In this document: positions 788 through 64,000 of the stretch, one piece after another | How positions within the stretch are numbered: the stretch's first letter is position 1 | Layout of the letters: each line of letters opens with the position of its first letter | IMG/VR virus record: IMGVR_UViG_3300027733_000039 | Span: 33,132-97,131 of that record | Origin: a virus | Strand: one strand, 5' to 3' | Length of the DNA: 64,000 nt | Translations under genes and position numbers: made by a program | The notes under the pieces: generated by a model | Told to the model about the DNA's origin: nothing | The model's input: the letters and a program-made list of their open reading frames with translations, nothing else | Databases searched by the model: none

Positions 788-880
788 ACCTCCTCAGGTC
801 TTATCGTCACGACACGGGATGTGTCGCTAGTCCCCAGTGCTCATTGAAGAGCCACGCCCTAGGCGCTGGGGGAATGATCA
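788..880 (-). ncRNA. structured leader element, copy 1 (three-way junction + hairpin + RBS)
   Basis: CCCCAG/CTGGGG, CGCC/GGCG, GCTC-TTCAAT-GAGC, CGACAC/GTGTCG; covaries with copy 2. Confidence 0.65.
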
Positions 881-1402: not shown

Positions 1403-1490
1403 CCTCCTCAGGCATATTCACGACACTTGCGTGTCGCTAGTCCCCAGTACCGATTGAACGGTCACGCCTGAAGCGCTGGGGGATTGATCA
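1403..1490 (-). ncRNA. structured leader element, copy 2
   Basis: CCCCAG/CTGGGG, CGCT/GGCG, ACCG-TTCAAT-CGGT, CGACAC-GCAA-GTGTCG. Confidence 0.65.
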
Positions 1491-1732: not shown

Positions 1733-2020
1733 GGTGTGTCCTCCTCAGGACTGCACTGGCAGTGAGCCAGTGGAGCGTGGTGCGCTCAATCAGGACTGGA
1801 GCGGGGGAGAACCTCCAGCCCTCATTGAGCGCCACGAGCAAGCCGAAGCAAGCCCGTGACGCTGAGGAATTTATTGAACCATGTTTTGATTCTTCAGTTG
1901 TCAGGAGCGCATGAGCGCCAAGCCAAGCAATCGGCAGAACGACAAAGAGCGACCCGAAGGTCGCTTTCCGTGTGAGCCGATTGTCAAGGAACCTGCGAAG
2001 GAAGCGGTACCGCCTTCACA
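1733..2020 (-). ncRNA. ~290-nt multi-hairpin 5' leader of the early operon
   Basis: Six consecutive stems, two with C(UUCG)G loops, directly downstream of a TTGACA promoter. Confidence 0.55.
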
Positions 2021-57007: not shown

Positions 57008-58627
57008 ATGGCACGTCAATCTTTTAGACTAAAGCGAGTCGTTGGTGCTGGAGATGCTGTTGGTGTTGGTTCCTTTGTAAGGGGTACAAGTGCGCTACAA
57101 GGATCTGCTGGTGCTTCTACATTTGATCAAGATTCGGCTATCCGTTCTACAGGCATCATTTCAGTTAACACAATTTCCGCAGAGTCTACGTTTGAAGCAA
57201 TTGCAATTGAGTACAATGCGTCCCTTTTAAATTGGACATTGACGGAACCTTTTATTGAAGTTACATCTATACCAGATGGTTCATCTGGTCTTGTAGGAGT
57301 CGCAATTGTGTACTCACATACGGGGTATCCACAAACCGTTACTGACGGCAAGTTAATCTTTCAAGGCTCAGAAAACACATATCTACACCAACAAACAATC
57401 CAAATAACAACTGACCAAGGTGTAGAGGAAATGTATGAACCAGAACCTGGTAAGTGGGCATATTATTCGTTGTTTGCTTACTATAATAATGACGGTCCTT
57501 ATGGAACTTTCTATTATGAACTGCTATCTCAAATTGAAATAATTGTTCCTAAAGATTATGGGTCACGAAGTGCTCTATGGTCTCGTATTCCTTTGTATTA
57601 CCGTGAACAAGACCTTGTAAATAACAACCAACTAGAGCGATACATTGATACTTTTGGATTTGAACTAGACAAAACAAGAACATTAATTGATACCATGATG
57701 GTTCAATACGACCCATTACTAGCAGAAGCAGAAGCAGTAGATGAACTAGCAAAAATGCTAGGACTTGAACTTGGTGTTTCTGACATTGGCGTGTCACGAA
57801 CAAGAGCGCTTCTTCATGACATTGGTTATTTAAGAAAGAATAAAGGAACATTGGATGCTGTTGTGGATTACGCAACCGCAGTAAGTGGTGGTGACGTTAC
57901 CGTATTCACTGGTGCCTCAGCACCTTTCTATACGTTCTGTGTCCACGCAGAACGTGCAAACTTAATTGCTGACCCACGATTTATTGGTGCCCAAAACTCT
58001 ACATGGGCAGTAACTTCACAAAATAGTGTCACAGTAAGCACAACTCCTGTGGATGGGATTACTATCACAGCGGGAGGAACTGCTACCAAAGTAGCAATCA
58101 CTTGTAAGCAAGCAGTTCCTGTAGACGTAGATCGTTCCTACTATATTTCTGCCGACCTTAGTGCAACACCTGAGATAGTCTATGGTGGTTTTTGGGGGGC
58201 AGGTGCATCTTGGAGTGACTGGTCTGCCACAACTGCTGTTTCTGCTATTCCTCTTGGTATTAACAACCGTTACGCATACCAAATGGCAAACGGTACGGGA
58301 ACTAAATATCCCGTCTTAGTGTTTAAATTAAGTGCAAACCAATCCATTACAGTTTCTAACTGGATGGTTGAGCCAAACAAAGCAGGGTCTTTCTTTGATG
58401 GTAGTAGCATATTTGGTGGTTTCTTGTATCAAGGTTTTAGTTCTGACTACATATGGTCTGGTACCCAATACACTTCGTATTCCACATACACAACCAACAG
58501 GAAACGCACACAGAAAGCATTAGAAGGCTTGCTACCTAAGATACTTCCAGTTACAATGCTAGGTACCTCGGGAGGACAACCTAAATACCGAGTTTACTTT
58601 GATTGGATTCCTGGAAAGACTTTATGA
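57008..58627 (+). CDS. baseplate wedge (P2 gpI-like) protein
   Basis: LA..LG..R.KGT..V; follows baseplate J. Confidence 0.7.
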   Translation: MARQSFRLKRVVGAGDAVGVGSFVRGTSALQGSAGASTFDQDSAIRSTGIISVNTISAESTFEAIAIEYNASLLNWTLTEPFIEVTSIPDGSSGLVGVAIVYSHTGYPQTVTDGKLIFQGSENTYLHQQTIQITTDQGVEEMYEPEPGKWAYYSLFAYYNNDGPYGTFYYELLSQIEIIVPKDYGSRSALWSRIPLYYREQDLVNNNQLERYIDTFGFELDKTRTLIDTMMVQYDPLLAEAEAVDELAKMLGLELGVSDIGVSRTRALLHDIGYLRKNKGTLDAVVDYATAVSGGDVTVFTGASAPFYTFCVHAERANLIADPRFIGAQNSTWAVTSQNSVTVSTTPVDGITITAGGTATKVAITCKQAVPVDVDRSYYISADLSATPEIVYGGFWGAGASWSDWSATTAVSAIPLGINNRYAYQMANGTGTKYPVLVFKLSANQSITVSNWMVEPNKAGSFFDGSSIFGGFLYQGFSSDYIWSGTQYTSYSTYTTNRKRTQKALEGLLPKILPVTMLGTSGGQPKYRVYFDWIPGKTL

Positions 58628-58878
58628 CCTATTTGATTGCAGGGTTAGCCGTTTACAAGTTGATGCAAGTACTAGATCTACTTACACCTAGGGAAGCAAT
58701 GCCTTGGGTAAAAGTTCTTATTGGAGTTGCTTTTGGGTACGGCTCATTATTTATTTTAAATATTCACGACAAGTGGATTTCGGGGTTAGCAGTTGCTACT
58801 ATTGCAGGTGCCTGCCACGGAGTACTTAGATTGATTACTCTCATGGGAGATACGGCACAACGCAAATCAATCAAATAA
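58624..58878 (+). CDS. small membrane protein
   Basis: Three hydrophobic segments; ATGA overlap. Confidence 0.6.
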   Translation: MTYLIAGLAVYKLMQVLDLLTPREAMPWVKVLIGVAFGYGSLFILNIHDKWISGLAVATIAGACHGVLRLITLMGDTAQRKSIK

Positions 58879-58889
58879 ATGGAGCACAA

Positions 58890-59690
58890 GTGTTAAAAAC
58901 ATATGGAGTACTAGGTAACGGAAATACAAATAAGAATGTCATTGAAGATGCATTACGTGAATTAGGGACTGACAACGAGTTCATCGTTGCGTGTGGTTCA
59001 AAGACATCTGAATCAGAGTCACGAGTTTTGAACTGGCTCATTGACATGGAAGTGTTTTACAAGGTGATACATGCAGGTAAGGCGCCTGAAGCATTTCTTG
59101 AGAAAGCAATGACCGTGCATGTTCATCAAGACGCCGTGGGGCCAATGTTGAAGTTGCTAAAGAGCGCTTCGGGAACATTGCTACTTCTTTGGGATGATGC
59201 CCAAATGGATCGCATGGAAGAGATTTGTATTGCTGCTGCTGATGCAGGTATCCCAATTCTAGATTTGACAAATGGTCTTGTACCGATCATGGTCACTGGC
59301 GAAGACACACAAGAACAAGCAGAACCAACAGAGACCGAAGAAGTAGAAATAGAACCCTTCAGTCATGACGAGATGATGTCTATGTCAATTGGTGTCCTGC
59401 GCAAGACCGCAAAGTCACAAGGGATCGCTGTGGATCAACATGCCACAAAAGAAGACATTGTAAAAGCCATCATGTCAGATGCGCCTATGGAAGTAGAAGA
59501 GGAAGAGATCCTCCCACCTATTGAGTTAGGTACGTTTCATGTTGTAACTAGCGCCCCAACTGCCCAAGCAATTACTAGTTCTTATAACACCTGCATGCTT
59601 ACAGCAACATTCCCTAGTGGAGTAATCATGAGCCGTTCTGCAAACGTAGAGGAAGTCAAACAGTTGTTTGGCTTCGGGTCAACTATTTAG
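58890..59690 (+). CDS. hypothetical protein with Rho-N-like helical motif
   Basis: LRKTAKSQGI..TKEDIVKAI; GGAG RBS. Confidence 0.6.
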   Translation: MLKTYGVLGNGNTNKNVIEDALRELGTDNEFIVACGSKTSESESRVLNWLIDMEVFYKVIHAGKAPEAFLEKAMTVHVHQDAVGPMLKLLKSASGTLLLLWDDAQMDRMEEICIAAADAGIPILDLTNGLVPIMVTGEDTQEQAEPTETEEVEIEPFSHDEMMSMSIGVLRKTAKSQGIAVDQHATKEDIVKAIMSDAPMEVEEEEILPPIELGTFHVVTSAPTAQAITSSYNTCMLTATFPSGVIMSRSANVEEVKQLFGFGSTI

Positions 59691-60117
59691 TTGAAGCCTT
59701 AAGTTGCCAGCGCCACTTTTCATGCATGTCAATACGCTCTGCGAGGAAGTTAGCAATACCTTGTTCGTCAGCGTCATTGGCAGCATGAAAGGTTTTAACC
59801 AGGGTTTCTAGAACGCCATCATTTACTTTCAATAATGCTTTTGCCATTGCTTGTGGCTCTGGCTTAACTTCTTTTGCTTCTACTGTTCGCAATTCAGTAA
59901 ATTTGCTCAATGTAAAGGGAGCGTACTCATCCATCTTTCGTATGTTCTCTGCCAATGGGTCAATACTGCTGTAAACGTCTTCATAGATTTCAGCAAACAA
60001 AGCGTGGTACTGACTGAAGTCTTGACCTTCTACGTTCCAATGGTACCCATGTGCAACAAAATACATAGTGACTGCATCAGCCAATGCAACTTTAAGGGAA
60101 TCAATAAGTTTAGACAT
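59683..60117 (-). CDS. dps: Dps/ferritin-like DNA protection protein
   Basis: HWNVEG..F..H..F..IY..D..AE..R; HEKWRWQL. Confidence 0.9.
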   Translation of the reverse strand: MSKLIDSLKVALADAVTMYFVAHGYHWNVEGQDFSQYHALFAEIYEDVYSSIDPLAENIRKMDEYAPFTLSKFTELRTVEAKEVKPEPQAMAKALLKVNDGVLETLVKTFHAANDADEQGIANFLAERIDMHEKWRWQLKASTK

Positions 60118-60377
60118 TAGCAATCCCATTTTCGTAACGCCAAAGCCTTACGAGTAGGTTCTCCATTTGATTGTTTCATTGGACCCTCCATACCACCCAT
60201 TCTGGCACAAAAAGATTTGCGGCGTGCAGCCGCTTTAGGTGATTTTGCTGCTTGCTCGGATGACACAGGTGGTTTAAGGTTATGCCCTTCTGCTTTAGCA
60301 GACGCACGACCTTTAGCATTTAAGCCACCTTCAGGGTTCTTGCCTTCTTTGCGTTGCCAAGCAGCAGTTTTAGCCAT
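60117..60377 (-). CDS. basic protein (DUF6321-like)
   Basis: AWQRKEGKNPEGGLN..RRKSFCARM..WDC. Confidence 0.75.
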   Translation of the reverse strand: MAKTAAWQRKEGKNPEGGLNAKGRASAKAEGHNLKPPVSSEQAAKSPKAAARRKSFCARMGGMEGPMKQSNGEPTRKALALRKWDC

Positions 60378-60601
60378 TACTTTTCTTTCTTATGAGGATG
60401 CTTTGAGTGCCAGCCTTTAGTAGCAGCAACACCTTCTTTAACTGTCTTGGCTCCAGCCACTTTAGTTAAATTAATCTTGTCATTCTTTCCTTTAGTTTTG
60501 CCAAGGTGATCTACAATTATCTTCTTACCTTTTGCGTAAATGACATGAGGCTCGCCACCAGCAGAAATGGTTGCTGGTTTTTGTTTTTTCTTTGCTGACA
60601 T
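60377..60601 (-). CDS. small Lys-rich protein
   Basis: TAATG-coupled, highly basic. Confidence 0.7.
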   Translation of the reverse strand: MSAKKKQKPATISAGGEPHVIYAKGKKIIVDHLGKTKGKNDKINLTKVAGAKTVKEGVAATKGWHSKHPHKKEK

Positions 60602-60765
60602 TACTTCTTTCCTTTTTTAGAAGCAGTCATATTGTCTATGAGGTTTGGGTAAGGACGACCAGCGGCCTTAGCCCGAGCCTTTGCTTTTGACTTTTGCTCA
60701 GGTGATAACTTTCCTGATTTCTTTTTGGGATTAGGTGTATCCCAAACCTCTTTTTTAGACGCCAT
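60601..60765 (-). CDS. 54-aa Lys-rich protein (not in ORF track)
   Basis: MASKKEVWDTPNP..KARAKAAGRPYPNLIDNM. Confidence 0.7.
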   Translation of the reverse strand: MASKKEVWDTPNPKKKSGKLSPEQKSKAKARAKAAGRPYPNLIDNMTASKKGKK

Positions 60766-60767
60766 AA

Positions 60768-60866
60768 CTATTTCTTTTTAGCAGTTTTCTTTGCAGCCTT
60801 TTTAGGACCTTTGCCGTAACCTGCTTGTTTTTTGTCGGTCATACCACAACCACATGTCTTGCACAT
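60768..60866 (-). CDS. 32-aa Cys/Lys-rich peptide
   Basis: MCKTCGCG..KKAAKKTAKKK; AAGG RBS. Confidence 0.6.
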   Translation of the reverse strand: MCKTCGCGMTDKKQAGYGKGPKKAAKKTAKKK

Positions 60867-60912
60867 AAAGTACCTTATCCTTCTTTGTACAGGGTTTTTA
60901 CCATTGTAGCAA

Positions 60913-61003
60913 TTAGGAGGAGGGCTAGTTTGACACGGACGCAGGTTGAAAGGAGGGAAAGACCTGCGCTCTGTAAACCCTGAGGAGGTTGCCCTCCCCC
61001 TAA
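60913..61003 (-). ncRNA. candidate anti-Shine-Dalgarno hairpin RNA
   Basis: 13-bp closing stem, 7-bp apical stem, unpaired AACCUCCUCAGG and CUUUCCCUCCUUUCA; TATAGT -10 at 61020-61015. Confidence 0.55.
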
Positions 61004-61109
61004 CGCTTATCATCACTATACAGCACCAAGTTAAGTGATGGTGCCGTATAGTGGTGTGGACAGTGTAGCATGGGCAACCCAATGTTGAACAACCTGAGGA
61101 GCGTAATTA

Positions 61110-61595
61110 ATGGCACGAAATAATAGGTTAAGTGGACCATTTCTTCCCGTTCCGAGGTGGGTGCTCCCTTACATTGCAACGGACTATATTTCGCATGCCG
61201 TACTGAATCACTTCCTCCAGTACCTGCACCCAGATACCCAGGAACTGACAACCTCTTACCAGCACATCGCAGAGCAGATGGGGTGTGACAGACGAACAGT
61301 GATCCGCTCTATCAAGCGCCTAGAGGAGATTGGGCTGATCGTAAAACAGCAACGAACGAAGAATAATAAGAACCTGACGAACCGCTACTACGTCAATTTT
61401 AACAACCCAATGGTGACACACGAGTCACCACTAGTAGTGACTCTGGAGACACTAGGTAGTGTCACGGGAGACACCACTAGTAGTGTCACCAGTGACACCC
61501 AATCAAGAGTAAATATCAAGAGTAAAAGAATCAAGAAAGGGGAAATTTCTAAAGTGAATATTGATTGGAGGTTGGTAAATGAAGAAGCAGATTGA
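61110..61595 (+). CDS. HTH replication initiator (lambda O/DnaD-like arrangement)
   Basis: SYQHIAEQMGCDRRTVIRSIKRLEEIGLI wHTH, N.Y wing; internal iterons; upstream of loader and helicase. Confidence 0.75.
   Translation: MARNNRLSGPFLPVPRWVLPYIATDYISHAVLNHFLQYLHPDTQELTTSYQHIAEQMGCDRRTVIRSIKRLEEIGLIVKQQRTKNNKNLTNRYYVNFNNPMVTHESPLVVTLETLGSVTGDTTSSVTSDTQSRVNIKSKRIKKGEISKVNIDWRLVNEEAD
61412..61499. repeat. four 18-bp pseudo-palindromic iterons (putative origin)
   Basis: RGTGWC-N6-GWCACY at 61412, 61436, 61458, 61482, followed by an A-rich tract. Confidence 0.7.
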
Positions 61596-61977
61596 TGACT
61601 GGGGCACAGGGTTAGGCTCAGACCCCGACCGTCAGCCAGAGATACACATCCCGAAGGGGAACTCCCGCTCGGCTCTGGTCTACTTCTTTCGTGACAACAT
61701 GCCCACCGAAGCCATGGACAGAATCACCGCCACGGTCAACGCTCCCGCACTTATGAAGGGCTTTGCCAAACTTACACAACGAGGCTTTACACATGAACAG
61801 ATACATGCCATGATCATGGCCTTCGCAAGAGACATAACACGGAGACCGTTACCAGTGGAAGTAGCACCGTGGAGAGCCTTTCTAGCGAACTTAGACAAAT
61901 ATGCAAAGGATGCAACAAAACATGAAGACATTGATACAGCAACCCCATCAATTGACCCACGACTCTCGGAAGGTTAA
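61579..61977 (+). CDS. hypothetical replication-module protein
   Basis: GGAGG RBS; position between initiator and loader. Confidence 0.7.
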   Translation: MKKQIDDWGTGLGSDPDRQPEIHIPKGNSRSALVYFFRDNMPTEAMDRITATVNAPALMKGFAKLTQRGFTHEQIHAMIMAFARDITRRPLPVEVAPWRAFLANLDKYAKDATKHEDIDTATPSIDPRLSEG

Positions 61978-62084
61978 AGCCACTATTCATTGTGTGCTTT
62001 GTGATATTTATTTCTTATACGCAGATGCATACTTAACTCACCCTTGTGCGGTATCATCGTTACCCCCTCACAAAACGGATACAC

Positions 62085-62717
62085 ATGACTGACTGGAAGA
62101 GTTCTAAATACTGGCGCAATCGTTCTACAGAGGAGCGCTTACGTAACTTGCGCCTTCCACCTCGTTATAAGAATTGCTCGTTCAATTCTTTTGAGACCAC
62201 AGAGGCATCCGAACCCTTCAGCAATGCTGTTAGCAAGTGGGCAGGCAACATTGACAAGCGTATGGAAGACGGCATGGGTTTATATATCCATGGCAAAACA
62301 GGTTTAGGTAAAACACACCTAGCCGTGTCTGCTTTAAAAGAAGCAGTTACAAAACACGAGTTGAGTGGACTCTTTCTTTCTTACGACATCTACGTTGAGA
62401 TGGTTCATGACGCTCGTAACAATGACAATGAACTTCCTGACATGTACGGTGACGCCAACTTGCTTAAGTATGTCCGACGTGTTTATGACGTTGTCGTAAT
62501 TGATAACTTGAACGCAGACCGCTTGACTGACTACATGGCAAAGACAGTTTCCAGCATGATTGAATCACGTTATGACATGCAGTTACCGACCATCTTTACA
62601 ACAGACATCAACCCTGATAAATTGTCTGTGTTGTACACCAGCCGTGTGCAATCCATCATTCGTGAATCTTGTTATTTGATACACATCACAGGCGACGACT
62701 ACAGGGCACAACAATAA
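62085..62717 (+). CDS. DnaC/IstB-like AAA+ helicase loader
   Basis: GKTGLGKT Walker A, VVIDNL Walker B, RY..LPTIFTT. Confidence 0.85.
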   Translation: MTDWKSSKYWRNRSTEERLRNLRLPPRYKNCSFNSFETTEASEPFSNAVSKWAGNIDKRMEDGMGLYIHGKTGLGKTHLAVSALKEAVTKHELSGLFLSYDIYVEMVHDARNNDNELPDMYGDANLLKYVRRVYDVVVIDNLNADRLTDYMAKTVSSMIESRYDMQLPTIFTTDINPDKLSVLYTSRVQSIIRESCYLIHITGDDYRAQQ

Positions 62718-62950
62718 TGCCAAGTAAAGTACGCCCACCAAAGACACGTGAGCAAATGGATCGGCGCAATCTCAGAAGCCGTCAACGACGCAAACGTGCA
62801 GTTGTAGTTGTAGTTGAAGGACAACGCATCTGTGCTTACCCAGAATGTACAACTATCTTGAGTCGTTTTAACTCAAGGGACATTTGTGCTTCCCACGAAC
62901 GCTTAACTGCTCGCAGTACTCCACACACTCTTTTTAACTGTGACTTTTAA
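62717..62950 (+). CDS. small basic Zn-binding protein
   Basis: C-x4-C...C-x2-H; TAATG coupling. Confidence 0.6.
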   Translation: MPSKVRPPKTREQMDRRNLRSRQRRKRAVVVVVEGQRICAYPECTTILSRFNSRDICASHERLTARSTPHTLFNCDF

Positions 62951-63390
62951 TGTTTAAGAATGACATTCAGTCATTTGATGACGTTGGCTATGGTGTTATT
63001 TTTGAAGACCTCTTGGCTAGTCCACCTGAAGGTTTAAAAGCAATTGGTAGCGCTCTACACAAAAACCGCAACAATTGGAACCGAGTGTTGAATCTTTGGA
63101 CACCACATGATCTTCCATTGAAGGCTCTTTACGACACAACACATCGTTTAGGTATTGGTGCAGAGGTCTACACATTCCTACATGAAGACGCAGTTGAGGC
63201 TGTGGATAACTGGCTACAGCGTAAAGGAATGTCTCTTCCTGTTCTCTACTACAAAACTTTTGGAGATCTTGAATATGACTTGCGTTTCAAGAGATCCGTC
63301 CGTACAATCTTTGTTCCACACCAAGACCAAGCAGCAGTGTTAGGTATTCGTGCGACAGTCACATCCTCTACAAGCGCTTGGGTACTCTAA
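62950..63390 (+). CDS. hypothetical protein (possible degenerate HAD-like fold)
   Basis: TAATG-coupled ORF before the helicase. Confidence 0.6.
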   Translation: MFKNDIQSFDDVGYGVIFEDLLASPPEGLKAIGSALHKNRNNWNRVLNLWTPHDLPLKALYDTTHRLGIGAEVYTFLHEDAVEAVDNWLQRKGMSLPVLYYKTFGDLEYDLRFKRSVRTIFVPHQDQAAVLGIRATVTSSTSAWVL

Positions 63391-64000
63391 ATGGCATCAA
63401 CTGAACATCTCCTCATCAGCAAGGTTATTCAAACTGCTGACCTCAGCGAAGTCATTGATTCAGGTTTACGTCCCGAGCACTTCAGTGGTGAATGGTCAGA
63501 CGTTTGGTTGTGGGTTCTCAACTATTGGCGTGAGTACGCAACCATTCCATCTCCACGAGTTTTCAAACAAGAATACGGTGACACTCGTCTTCTCAATGCA
63601 GAGAATGAACCATTTGCTGCACTCATTGATGAAATCTATGTTGCTTACAAACAACAGCACCTTGTTGACGCCATCACATCTGCATTGCCTGCTCTTAACA
63701 ACAATGAGACAGAAACTGCATTTAAGAAACTCTCGGAAGGTTTGCAAAAAGCCTCAGTGGAAGTTGCACGCCTCCGAGACATTGACCTCACACAATCATG
63801 GGAAGGACGTCTAGCAAAATATGAAGAAATGCGTAACACTCCGAACGGTCTTCGTGGCATTCCAACGGGGTTCCTTGGTCTTGATCGGATCACTGCTGGT
63901 CTTCGGCCTCAGCAACTTGTCACTTTTGTGGGTGAAGCGAAAAAAGGAAAATCGCTAATCACTCTTATCATGGCACAAGCCGCACACAACCACGGCATTG
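63391..64000 (+). CDS. dnaB: DnaB-like replicative helicase (runs off the window end; not in ORF track)
   Basis: MASTEHLLISK...GIPTGF..LD..TAGL.P.QL...GEAKKGKS Walker A. Confidence 0.85.
   Translation, partial: MASTEHLLISKVIQTADLSEVIDSGLRPEHFSGEWSDVWLWVLNYWREYATIPSPRVFKQEYGDTRLLNAENEPFAALIDEIYVAYKQQHLVDAITSALPALNNNETETAFKKLSEGLQKASVEVARLRDIDLTQSWEGRLAKYEEMRNTPNGLRGIPTGFLGLDRITAGLRPQQLVTFVGEAKKGKSLITLIMAQAAHNHGI

Follow-up and report, generated by a model that had tools for sequence, protein, structure and literature searches.

A conserved, structured minus-strand RNA predicted beside the replication-initiator gene of an actinobacteriophage, with an unpaired complement of the phage's own ribosome-binding motif

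The 97-kb genome considered here appears, from its sequence, to be that of a phage of freshwater actinobacteria carrying an RNA gene beside its replication-initiator gene, and about twenty relatives seem to keep the same RNA gene in the same place. The product would be a conserved, structured RNA of the minus strand without earlier description. We put at roughly one in two the probability that this is a small structured non-coding RNA gene, transcribed leftward, whose bulge pairs with the Shine-Dalgarno sites of the initiator and of a set of cassette genes and so lowers their translation. That ribosome-binding sites can be covered by small RNAs is well known. What would be new, relative to the literature examined, is for a virus to direct an RNA against a motif which it has itself set before a dozen of its genes; if true, a single transcript would switch off a whole gene class together with the phage's own replication initiator.

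Genomic setting and host

The window, that is, the whole stretch of 64,000 nt that was analysed, makes up the final 64 kb of a viral contig of 97,131 bp that is rated as complete. The structure sits in a 245-bp divergent intergenic region of the window (Table 1). To its right lies a plus-strand replication module, in which Pfam and PHROG matches identify the initiator, a DnaC-like loader and a DnaB-like helicase; to its left, the minus strand carries an operon of small genes with DUF6321 and Dps-like genes at its far end. For the first small proteins of this operon Pfam gave no family. The first leftward ORF of the window, which has its own Shine-Dalgarno site, is placed between the RNA and a conserved gene of 54 aa. 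This ORF is confined to the window's subclade (the window, L002 and L003); in the other relatives the 54-aa gene comes directly after the RNA, as a leaderless gene.

The host is likely to be actinobacterial, since the phage genome holds two WhiB-family genes; among 14 control genomes, a match to the WhiB family was found in Corynebacterium only. Homologues of the Dps-like gene are mostly alphaproteobacterial, at 35-40% identity, and are uninformative on the host. No cultured relatives were found by DNA in the phage collection, and protein matches there reached 23-27% at most. By a rough census of starts over the whole genome, most genes of the phage have short or weak Shine-Dalgarno sequences. 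The canonical GAAAGGAGG never serves as a ribosome-binding site in this phage, the whole genome considered.

Table 1. Features of the RNA locus, its candidate targets and related sites (window coordinates unless a genome or contig is named; arrows give the reading direction)
Feature	Position	Strand	Remarks
Main structure, HP2	60908..61007	-	17-bp outer stem, bulge-bearing internal loop, inner stem, 15-nt apical loop
Bulge AACCUCCUCAGG	60990->60979	-	From sequence
Invariant unpaired segment ACCUCCUCAGG	60979..60989	-	Mirror of the YCUGAGGAGG ribosome-binding motif
Apical loop CUUUCCCUCCUUUCA	60961->60947	-	Predicted unpaired probability about 1.0
Upstream hairpin, HP1	61014..61053	-	15-bp stem, 10-nt loop; TATAGT within 3′ arm
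-10-like box TACACT	61062..61067 (61067->61062)	-	Invariant; first six columns of the 17 sequences of alignment A5
-10-like box TAGCAT	61066-61071	+	Overlaps TACACT; points at the initiator gene
Box TATAGT	61020->61015	-	Inside 3′ arm of the conserved HP1
Downstream -10-like box TACAAT	60908->60903	-	Leftward small-gene operon; TANNNT conserved in all sequences
Initiator ribosome-binding site CCUGAGGAG and start codon (61110)	61093..61112	+	Candidate target; site invariant in close clade
Replication-initiator gene	61110-61595	+	HTH_36 / O-like domain; replication-initiator PHROGs
First leftward ORF, 32 aa, Cys/Lys-rich (MCKTCGCG...)	60768..60866	-	From sequence and alignment
Conserved 54-aa gene	60601-60765	-	Protein matches phrog_34011
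Cassette ribosome-binding hairpin CCUGAGGAGG	789..798	-	Candidate target; duplex -23.7 kcal/mol
Cassette ribosome-binding hairpin CCUGAGGAGG	1403..1412	-	Candidate target; duplex -23.5 kcal/mol
Cassette ribosome-binding site CCUGAGGAGG	1740..1749	-	Candidate target; duplex -21.8 kcal/mol
WhiB-family gene L182	genome 22945-23139	-	Outside window
WhiB-family gene L183	genome 20477-20677	+	Outside window
24-nt copy upstream of the initiator promoter, L077	L077:1383-1406		
Initiator site, L077	L077:1457-1482		

Structure, conservation and strand

The preliminary description, drawn from the letters of the window, had set out a hairpin with one G-U pair, inner stems, a bulge, an apical loop and the boxes TACAAT and TATAGT, and each of these was found again in its place. 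The outer stem of HP2, UUAGGGGGAGGGC / GCCCUCCUCCUAA, holds one G-U pair, the plus-strand equivalent of which is A.C. Both inner stems, GUUU/AAAC and CGCAGGU/ACCUGCG, are present on the minus strand of the window; GUUU/AAAC is specific to the window's subclade, and the conserved lower inner stem is ACAG-/-CUGU. The minus strand folds at -45.6 kcal/mol (z = -4.4), with 0 of 200 shuffles folding as well, and the plus strand at -42.7 kcal/mol (z = -3.0). Segment ACCUCCUCAGG is predicted to form at most a 3-bp mini-hairpin with a CCUC loop, and the predicted unpaired probability of the central CCUC of the bulge is 0.65-1.0. Upstream of HP2, each relative folds the HP1 region into a stem of 11-15 bp, the sequence of which differs between subclades.

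Relatives were gathered via the initiator protein (20 related viral contigs and 12 metagenome contigs), and a covariance model, R1, was built from 13 sequences. With this model the element is recovered at 22 loci, which comprise 16 distinct sequences; at each locus it lies upstream of, and antisense to, the initiator gene. The minus-strand score in the window is 102 bits (E = 3e-26), where the plus strand reaches 16.5 bits; across loci the corresponding ranges are 100-121 bits versus 11-21 bits. Standard pairs occupy 496/496 pair cells of the 16 distinct sequences, and ten pairs in these sequences have changed on both sides in a compensatory manner. The observed covariation score was reached by none of 500 shuffles, and pairing falls to 41-57% when the partners are slid by one to three columns. 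A loose DNA pattern run over viral contigs returned 22 extra loci; the covariance model accepted one of them, L062, and the rest are chance matches. Relatives differ by indels of 1-3 nt and by paired changes, on which a coding reading was rejected. A search of 58000-64000 against Rfam gave no match at E <= 1, and a search of 60880-61090 at E <= 10 returned only chance look-alikes of microRNA precursors, far below thresholds.

Two C/U-rich segments of the structure had been proposed to stay unpaired. Both are predicted to be unpaired and both are invariant: ACCUCCUCAGG is unchanged throughout alignments A1, A2 and A5, and like the loop core CCUCCUUUC it stays fixed while the surrounding stems vary. 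A check on the conservation of the bulge in relatives, suggested in the same place, found it invariant, and a loop-anchored pattern in which the bulge was left free found no variant bulge. The target motif is likewise unvarying among close relatives.

The wobble cells bear on the strand. On the minus strand 34 of them, at 9 pair positions, are G-U and zero are A.C, which argues for a minus-strand RNA, as every one of these cells would be a mismatch if read on the plus strand; it is unlikely that nine wobble positions would all point in the same direction in a DNA element or in a plus-strand RNA. The claim of an RNA-level element on the minus strand is thereby upheld, and the plus-strand alternative, a CsrA-sponge-like RNA, is disfavoured on the same G-U asymmetry. 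HP1 has the same bias: for 19 of 20 sequences its minus strand folds more stably than its plus strand, the means being -16.7 and -12.3 kcal/mol.

A DNA site would have no such strand preference, in HP2 or in HP1. Moreover, the stems change by compensatory pairs while the unpaired parts are fixed, which is the reverse of a protein-binding palindrome. An element acting as DNA, with the inverted repeat and the copy of the initiator site serving as protein sites (an operator, an accessory to the origin or an autoregulatory repeat), is on these grounds very improbable, even though the structure sits in the control region beside the replication initiator, the plus strand has a direct repeat of the initiator start region, and HP1 is a palindrome between two -10-like boxes. 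Separate iteron-like repeats, which also speak against a DNA-level role for the hairpin, lie within the initiator gene at 61412-61499. These direct and inverted repeats (GTGACAC / GTGTCAC ... CACCACTAGTAGTG) form two 40-nt copies 46 nt apart and encode a repeated SVTGDT peptide. They are likely the origin of replication, and an origin reading of the hairpin was set aside with these repeats as the better candidate. Origin repeats inside the initiator gene are known from lambda O.

Promoters and RNA ends

The box TACACT, upstream of HP1, is the likely promoter of the RNA. The preliminary description had placed the promoter at TATAGT; that box lies within the 3′ arm of the conserved HP1 and is therefore probably not a promoter. 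Because HP1 also favours the minus strand, a start at TACACT rather than at TATAGT is probable. The RNA would then probably start near 61055 and have a length of about 150 nt; if TATAGT were the start, it would be about 100 nt long. TACACT and the plus-strand box TAGCAT fall within an invariant block, AGTGTARCATGG, which looks like a pair of overlapping divergent -10 boxes. As RNA polymerase cannot occupy both boxes at once, the block may act as a switch between the RNA and the replication genes.

At the other end, no U tract follows HP2, and a terminator scan of the minus strand found none. The sequence after HP2 reads AAUUGCUACAAUGG in the window and AACCGCUAAACU in relatives. Given that no U tract is present, the RNA may simply read on into the leftward genes.

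The structure could then be a cis-acting 5′ leader of the leftward operon that acts on its own transcript, the mirror of the motif being incidental. Variants of this explanation are an attenuator or terminator, a processing or stability element, and an anti-termination element like the HK022 put RNAs. The position of the structure directly upstream of same-strand leftward genes, with no U tract between, suits such a leader. So does one relative, L010, in which a deletion of 27 nt has taken away the outer stem's 3′ arm together with the downstream -10 box, sparing the bulge, inner hairpin and loop (L010:2826-2924); there the leftward gene is left expressible only through the RNA, and L010 may be a natural truncated variant or an assembly artefact. 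However, in most relatives the TANNNT box reads TAAACT and is followed after 6-7 nt by the ATG of the 54-aa gene (alignment A5), a distance that appears to be the spacing of a leaderless promoter. With such a promoter of its own, the leftward gene would have no need of an upstream transcript. The first gene is also without a Shine-Dalgarno site on which anti-Shine-Dalgarno segments could act, and a leader acting in cis leaves unexplained an invariant 11-nt unpaired mirror of a motif that is used twelve times elsewhere. We consider a leader of this kind unlikely.

The bulge and its candidate targets

The preferred reading, a small RNA acting in trans, rests on the relation between the bulge and a motif of the phage's own leaders. 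In the window CCTGAGGAG has 5 occurrences versus 0.32 expected, three of them minus-strand (790, 1404, 1741) and two plus-strand (60979, 61093). Across the full genome, eleven minus-strand genes carry YCTGAGGAGG, in a single orientation, 5-9 nt ahead of their ATG; one copy, on the plus strand, falls inside the structure. Three of these eleven cassette sites are in the window and eight are upstream of it in the same genome. The initiator ribosome-binding site has CCTGAGGAGC, which is complementary to the bulge over 9 nt. In each of four related genomes the motif is present 4-11 times on one strand and exactly once on the other; exactly one reversed copy is present in each of the clade's five genomes.

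A duplex scan of the bulge segment covered both strands of the 97-kb genome in about 48,500 windows. The cassette sites give duplex energies of -21 to -25 kcal/mol and the initiator site gives -20.7 kcal/mol, the genome mean being -7.4 kcal/mol (sd 3.0). Besides the bulge's own antisense, cassette sites are the best partners: they take nine of the first twelve places, and the whole set of eleven, together with the initiator site, ranks within the top 24 or so. Thus the bulge is, as had been claimed, the exact complement of the early-gene ribosome-binding motif and a match to the initiator site, and these are its best predicted partners in the genome. Part of this complementarity is generic, since anti-Shine-Dalgarno sequences match any strong ribosome-binding site; in the rough start census no Shine-Dalgarno sequences of the genome come near the strength of the cassette sites and a few others. 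Taken alone, the 9-nt match between bulge and initiator in the window's clade has p of about 0.04-0.09.

The candidate targets lie at very different distances, the initiator on the opposite strand 100 nt away and the cassettes about 30-60 kb away. The structure (60908-61053) stops about 40 nt short of the initiator ribosome-binding site at 61093-61101.

The proposed mechanism is as follows. Leftward transcription of the minus strand would begin in the divergent control region beside the initiator gene, and the fold of the resulting RNA would hold the two C/U-rich segments open. Of these, ACCUCCUCAGG would find its partners in the initiator message, at the Shine-Dalgarno region, and in the eleven YCUGAGGAGG cassette leaders. 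Since the cassette sites form small hairpins of their own, with GAGG in the loop, a loop-loop contact with CCUC is plausible, and the partners would probably meet first in such a kiss of the CCUC mini-loop with the GAGG of the target. Once paired, the RNA would mask the ribosome-binding site and reduce translation. The sequences show a structure at the level of RNA, its strand, open segments that do not vary, their complementarity and the presence of the motif alongside; transcription, the ends of the RNA, pairing in the cell and repression we infer.

Distant relatives and the core target

A distant complete genome, the 94,948-bp viral contig L077, has an initiator that is 52% identical and at least 16 identical CCUGAGGAGG hairpin sites, with no mirror of the motif anywhere in it. 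Cassette sites in a genome without the mirror indicate that the cassettes do not need the RNA. The anti-Shine-Dalgarno, trans-acting reading of the preliminary description therefore stands in its structure, strand and complementarity; it loses the TATAGT promoter and, with this distant genome, any obligatory link to the cassettes.

In the same intergenic position the distant genome has a simple hairpin, preceded on the minus strand by a stretch whose plus form copies the genome's own initiator start region. In this copy 23/26 positions match, start codon included (p < 1/300). In the distant clade such a copy would provide an antisense match of 26-28 nt that includes the AUG, then a hairpin and a short U run (AUUU). 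Two other distant contigs have weaker copies (15/20 and 16/19 bases). In L079 the initiator start region has changed at three positions and the RNA region has no matching change. A matrix of duplex energies within and across lineages was not clean as a test of co-variation, because the distant lineages resemble one another too closely in their initiator start regions. Both L079 and this matrix speak against a strict joint evolution of the RNA and its target.

Since the distant RNA region copies its own initiator start and its genome has no mirror of the motif, the initiator is the likelier ancestral, core target. The theme common across the clades would be an RNA antisense, in trans, to the translation start of the initiator. 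Because the initiator of the window's clade shares the cassette motif, the RNA would there reach all twelve sites.

The apical loop and the 16S rRNA tail

The second open segment had been said to resemble the tail of actinobacterial 16S rRNA, and the core of the apical loop, CCUCCUUUC, indeed equals the end of that tail. In some relatives the apical loop has the variant UUUACCUCCUUUCU, and in some its core reads ACCUCCUUUCU. The sequence CCTCCTTTC has a single occurrence in the 97-kb genome. Among 61 genomes sampled from the phylum of an Acidimicrobiales genome, the unpublished G008, G025 and G055 included, the 16-mer GGATCACCTCCTTTCT was found in 40, in 1-6 copies, and a reversed control in zero. 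The loop complement GAAAGGAGG occurs nowhere else in the phage genome, and the loop has no partner comparable to that of the bulge. With no matching phage site, strong host Shine-Dalgarno sites are possible partners, and it is with these that the segment would pair, if it pairs at all. The preliminary description also had host messages silenced, leaderless genes escaping and, as a result, expression switched from early to late; these proposals are conjectural.

Alternatively, the loop may mimic the 3′ tail of 16S rRNA for a protein and serve as a decoy or binding site. Candidates for that protein are a host toxin that cuts the anti-Shine-Dalgarno end, or a phage or host protein that regulates itself via an rRNA-like leader. 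The loop core is invariant (ACCUCCUUUCU in some relatives) and fully exposed, it has no partner in the phage genome, and the identical 16S tail is widespread in the host phylum; mycobacterial MazF-mt11 and RelE1 cleave 16S rRNA specifically so as to remove its anti-Shine-Dalgarno end (PMC12274833, PMC12620021). Against this, the MazF-mt11 site CACCU is absent from the loop, which has UCCCU or UACCU, and a MazF-mt11 decoy fails on sequence for that reason. The downstream small proteins match no ribosomal or RNA-binding family in Pfam or the protein atlas, and an autoregulatory leader of a ribosomal-protein-like product was rejected for want of support from either. As protein mimicry also leaves the exact mirror in the bulge unexplained, it is an improbable account of the element, more so than a leader acting in cis.

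Comparison with known regulatory RNAs

In 6C RNA of Actinobacteria and in RsaE/RoxS and RNAIII of Firmicutes, C-rich loops pair with the G-rich ribosome-binding sites of several messages. The window RNA shares with these the pyrimidine-rich segments held unpaired, a likeness of function only. It has no Rfam match to 6C RNA or the other C-rich-loop RNAs, its gene is viral, unlike theirs, and its bulge is an exact 10-11 nt mirror of a phage-private site, whereas the 6C type has a short generic C run.

Plasmid counter-transcript RNAs, which regulate the translation of replication initiators, and the P22 sar RNA are small RNAs complementary to the translation start of an adjacent replication or regulatory gene. 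The distant clade is like these in its match to the initiator start (23/26 bases, with the AUG). However, counter-transcripts and sar are transcribed opposite the target's own leader, whereas the window RNA (61007-60908) does not overlap the leader site 61093-61112 and owes its complementarity to a displaced copy. Intrinsically terminated small RNAs end in a GC hairpin and a 3′ U tract; HP2 does not have this arrangement, and the distant clade has a hairpin with AUUU.

The C4 antisense RNA of P1/P7 pairs in trans with a phage message through exposed loops, one contact covering a ribosome-binding site (PMC5320573). Like the window RNA, it is a phage-encoded structured RNA with exposed complementary segments, and in both the complementarity comes from short duplicated sequences and not from overlapping transcription; here too the likeness is functional only. 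The window RNA does not match the C4 model of Rfam, and its two hairpins with an internal bulge differ from the three stem-loops of C4. In addition, C4 is excised by RNase P from the leader of the operon that it controls, its targets being downstream on the same transcript (PMC5320573), whereas the window RNA has twelve candidate targets, on other transcripts.

A parallel in Cluster K mycobacteriophages

Cluster K mycobacteriophages have 13-bp start-associated sequences (SAS) before 11-19 genes, and one copy in the opposite orientation that was left unexplained (Pope et al. 2011, PMC3203893). The SAS and the window motif are both extended Shine-Dalgarno sequences a few bases before start codons and in one orientation, in Cluster K before non-structural genes, and in both phages the single reversed copy is in a gene-free gap and not at a gene start. 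The motifs themselves differ, the SAS being GGGAUAGGAGCCC and the window motif YCUGAGGAGG; the SAS motif GGGATAGGAGCCC is not found in the window phage, and the phages belong to lineages with no relation to each other. In Cluster K the element stands at the head of the late operon, whereas that of the window would be a small divergent RNA beside a replication gene. No RNA partner for the SAS is proposed in the Cluster K literature examined.

Adephagia has exactly one reversed SAS, at 58682-58694, within a 432-bp gene-free gap that separates gene 92 from gene 93, and this copy is in the loop of a hairpin at 58660-58715. The surrounding region (JF704105, 58579-58798; L099:880-1099) is structured and unannotated, and its hairpin loop CCUCCUAUCC is the SAS complement. 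Among Cluster K records, 182 have this gap conserved. It opens with an invariant TAGACT in the 15 phages sampled and folds there into hairpins, the pairs of which favour the gene strand (about 99 G-U versus 8 A.C cells); an RNA from this strand would therefore display the SAS complement. RNA-seq of Adephagia places a late transcription start between genes 92 and 93 (PMC11373665).

These parallels raise a broader idea, tentative and on balance doubtful, that actinobacteriophages tag a gene class with a private Shine-Dalgarno 'address' that one anti-address RNA can shut off. The window RNA and the Cluster K SAS would be two cases; in Cluster K an anti-SAS hairpin on the leader of the late operon would constitute an early-to-late switch. 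The 16S-like loop of the window RNA would, in addition, compete for strong host ribosome-binding sites. If true, this would give a testable answer to the role of the SAS and of its single reversed copy, open since 2011. The phage of the window is uncultured. With Cluster K phages, which propagate on Mycobacterium smegmatis and are amenable to engineering, the idea is directly testable.

The exact SAS complement is found only in Adephagia-like phages. Other Cluster K subclusters have the same SAS, but their loop is degenerate and pyrimidine-rich, or different. The window's family has the same pattern.
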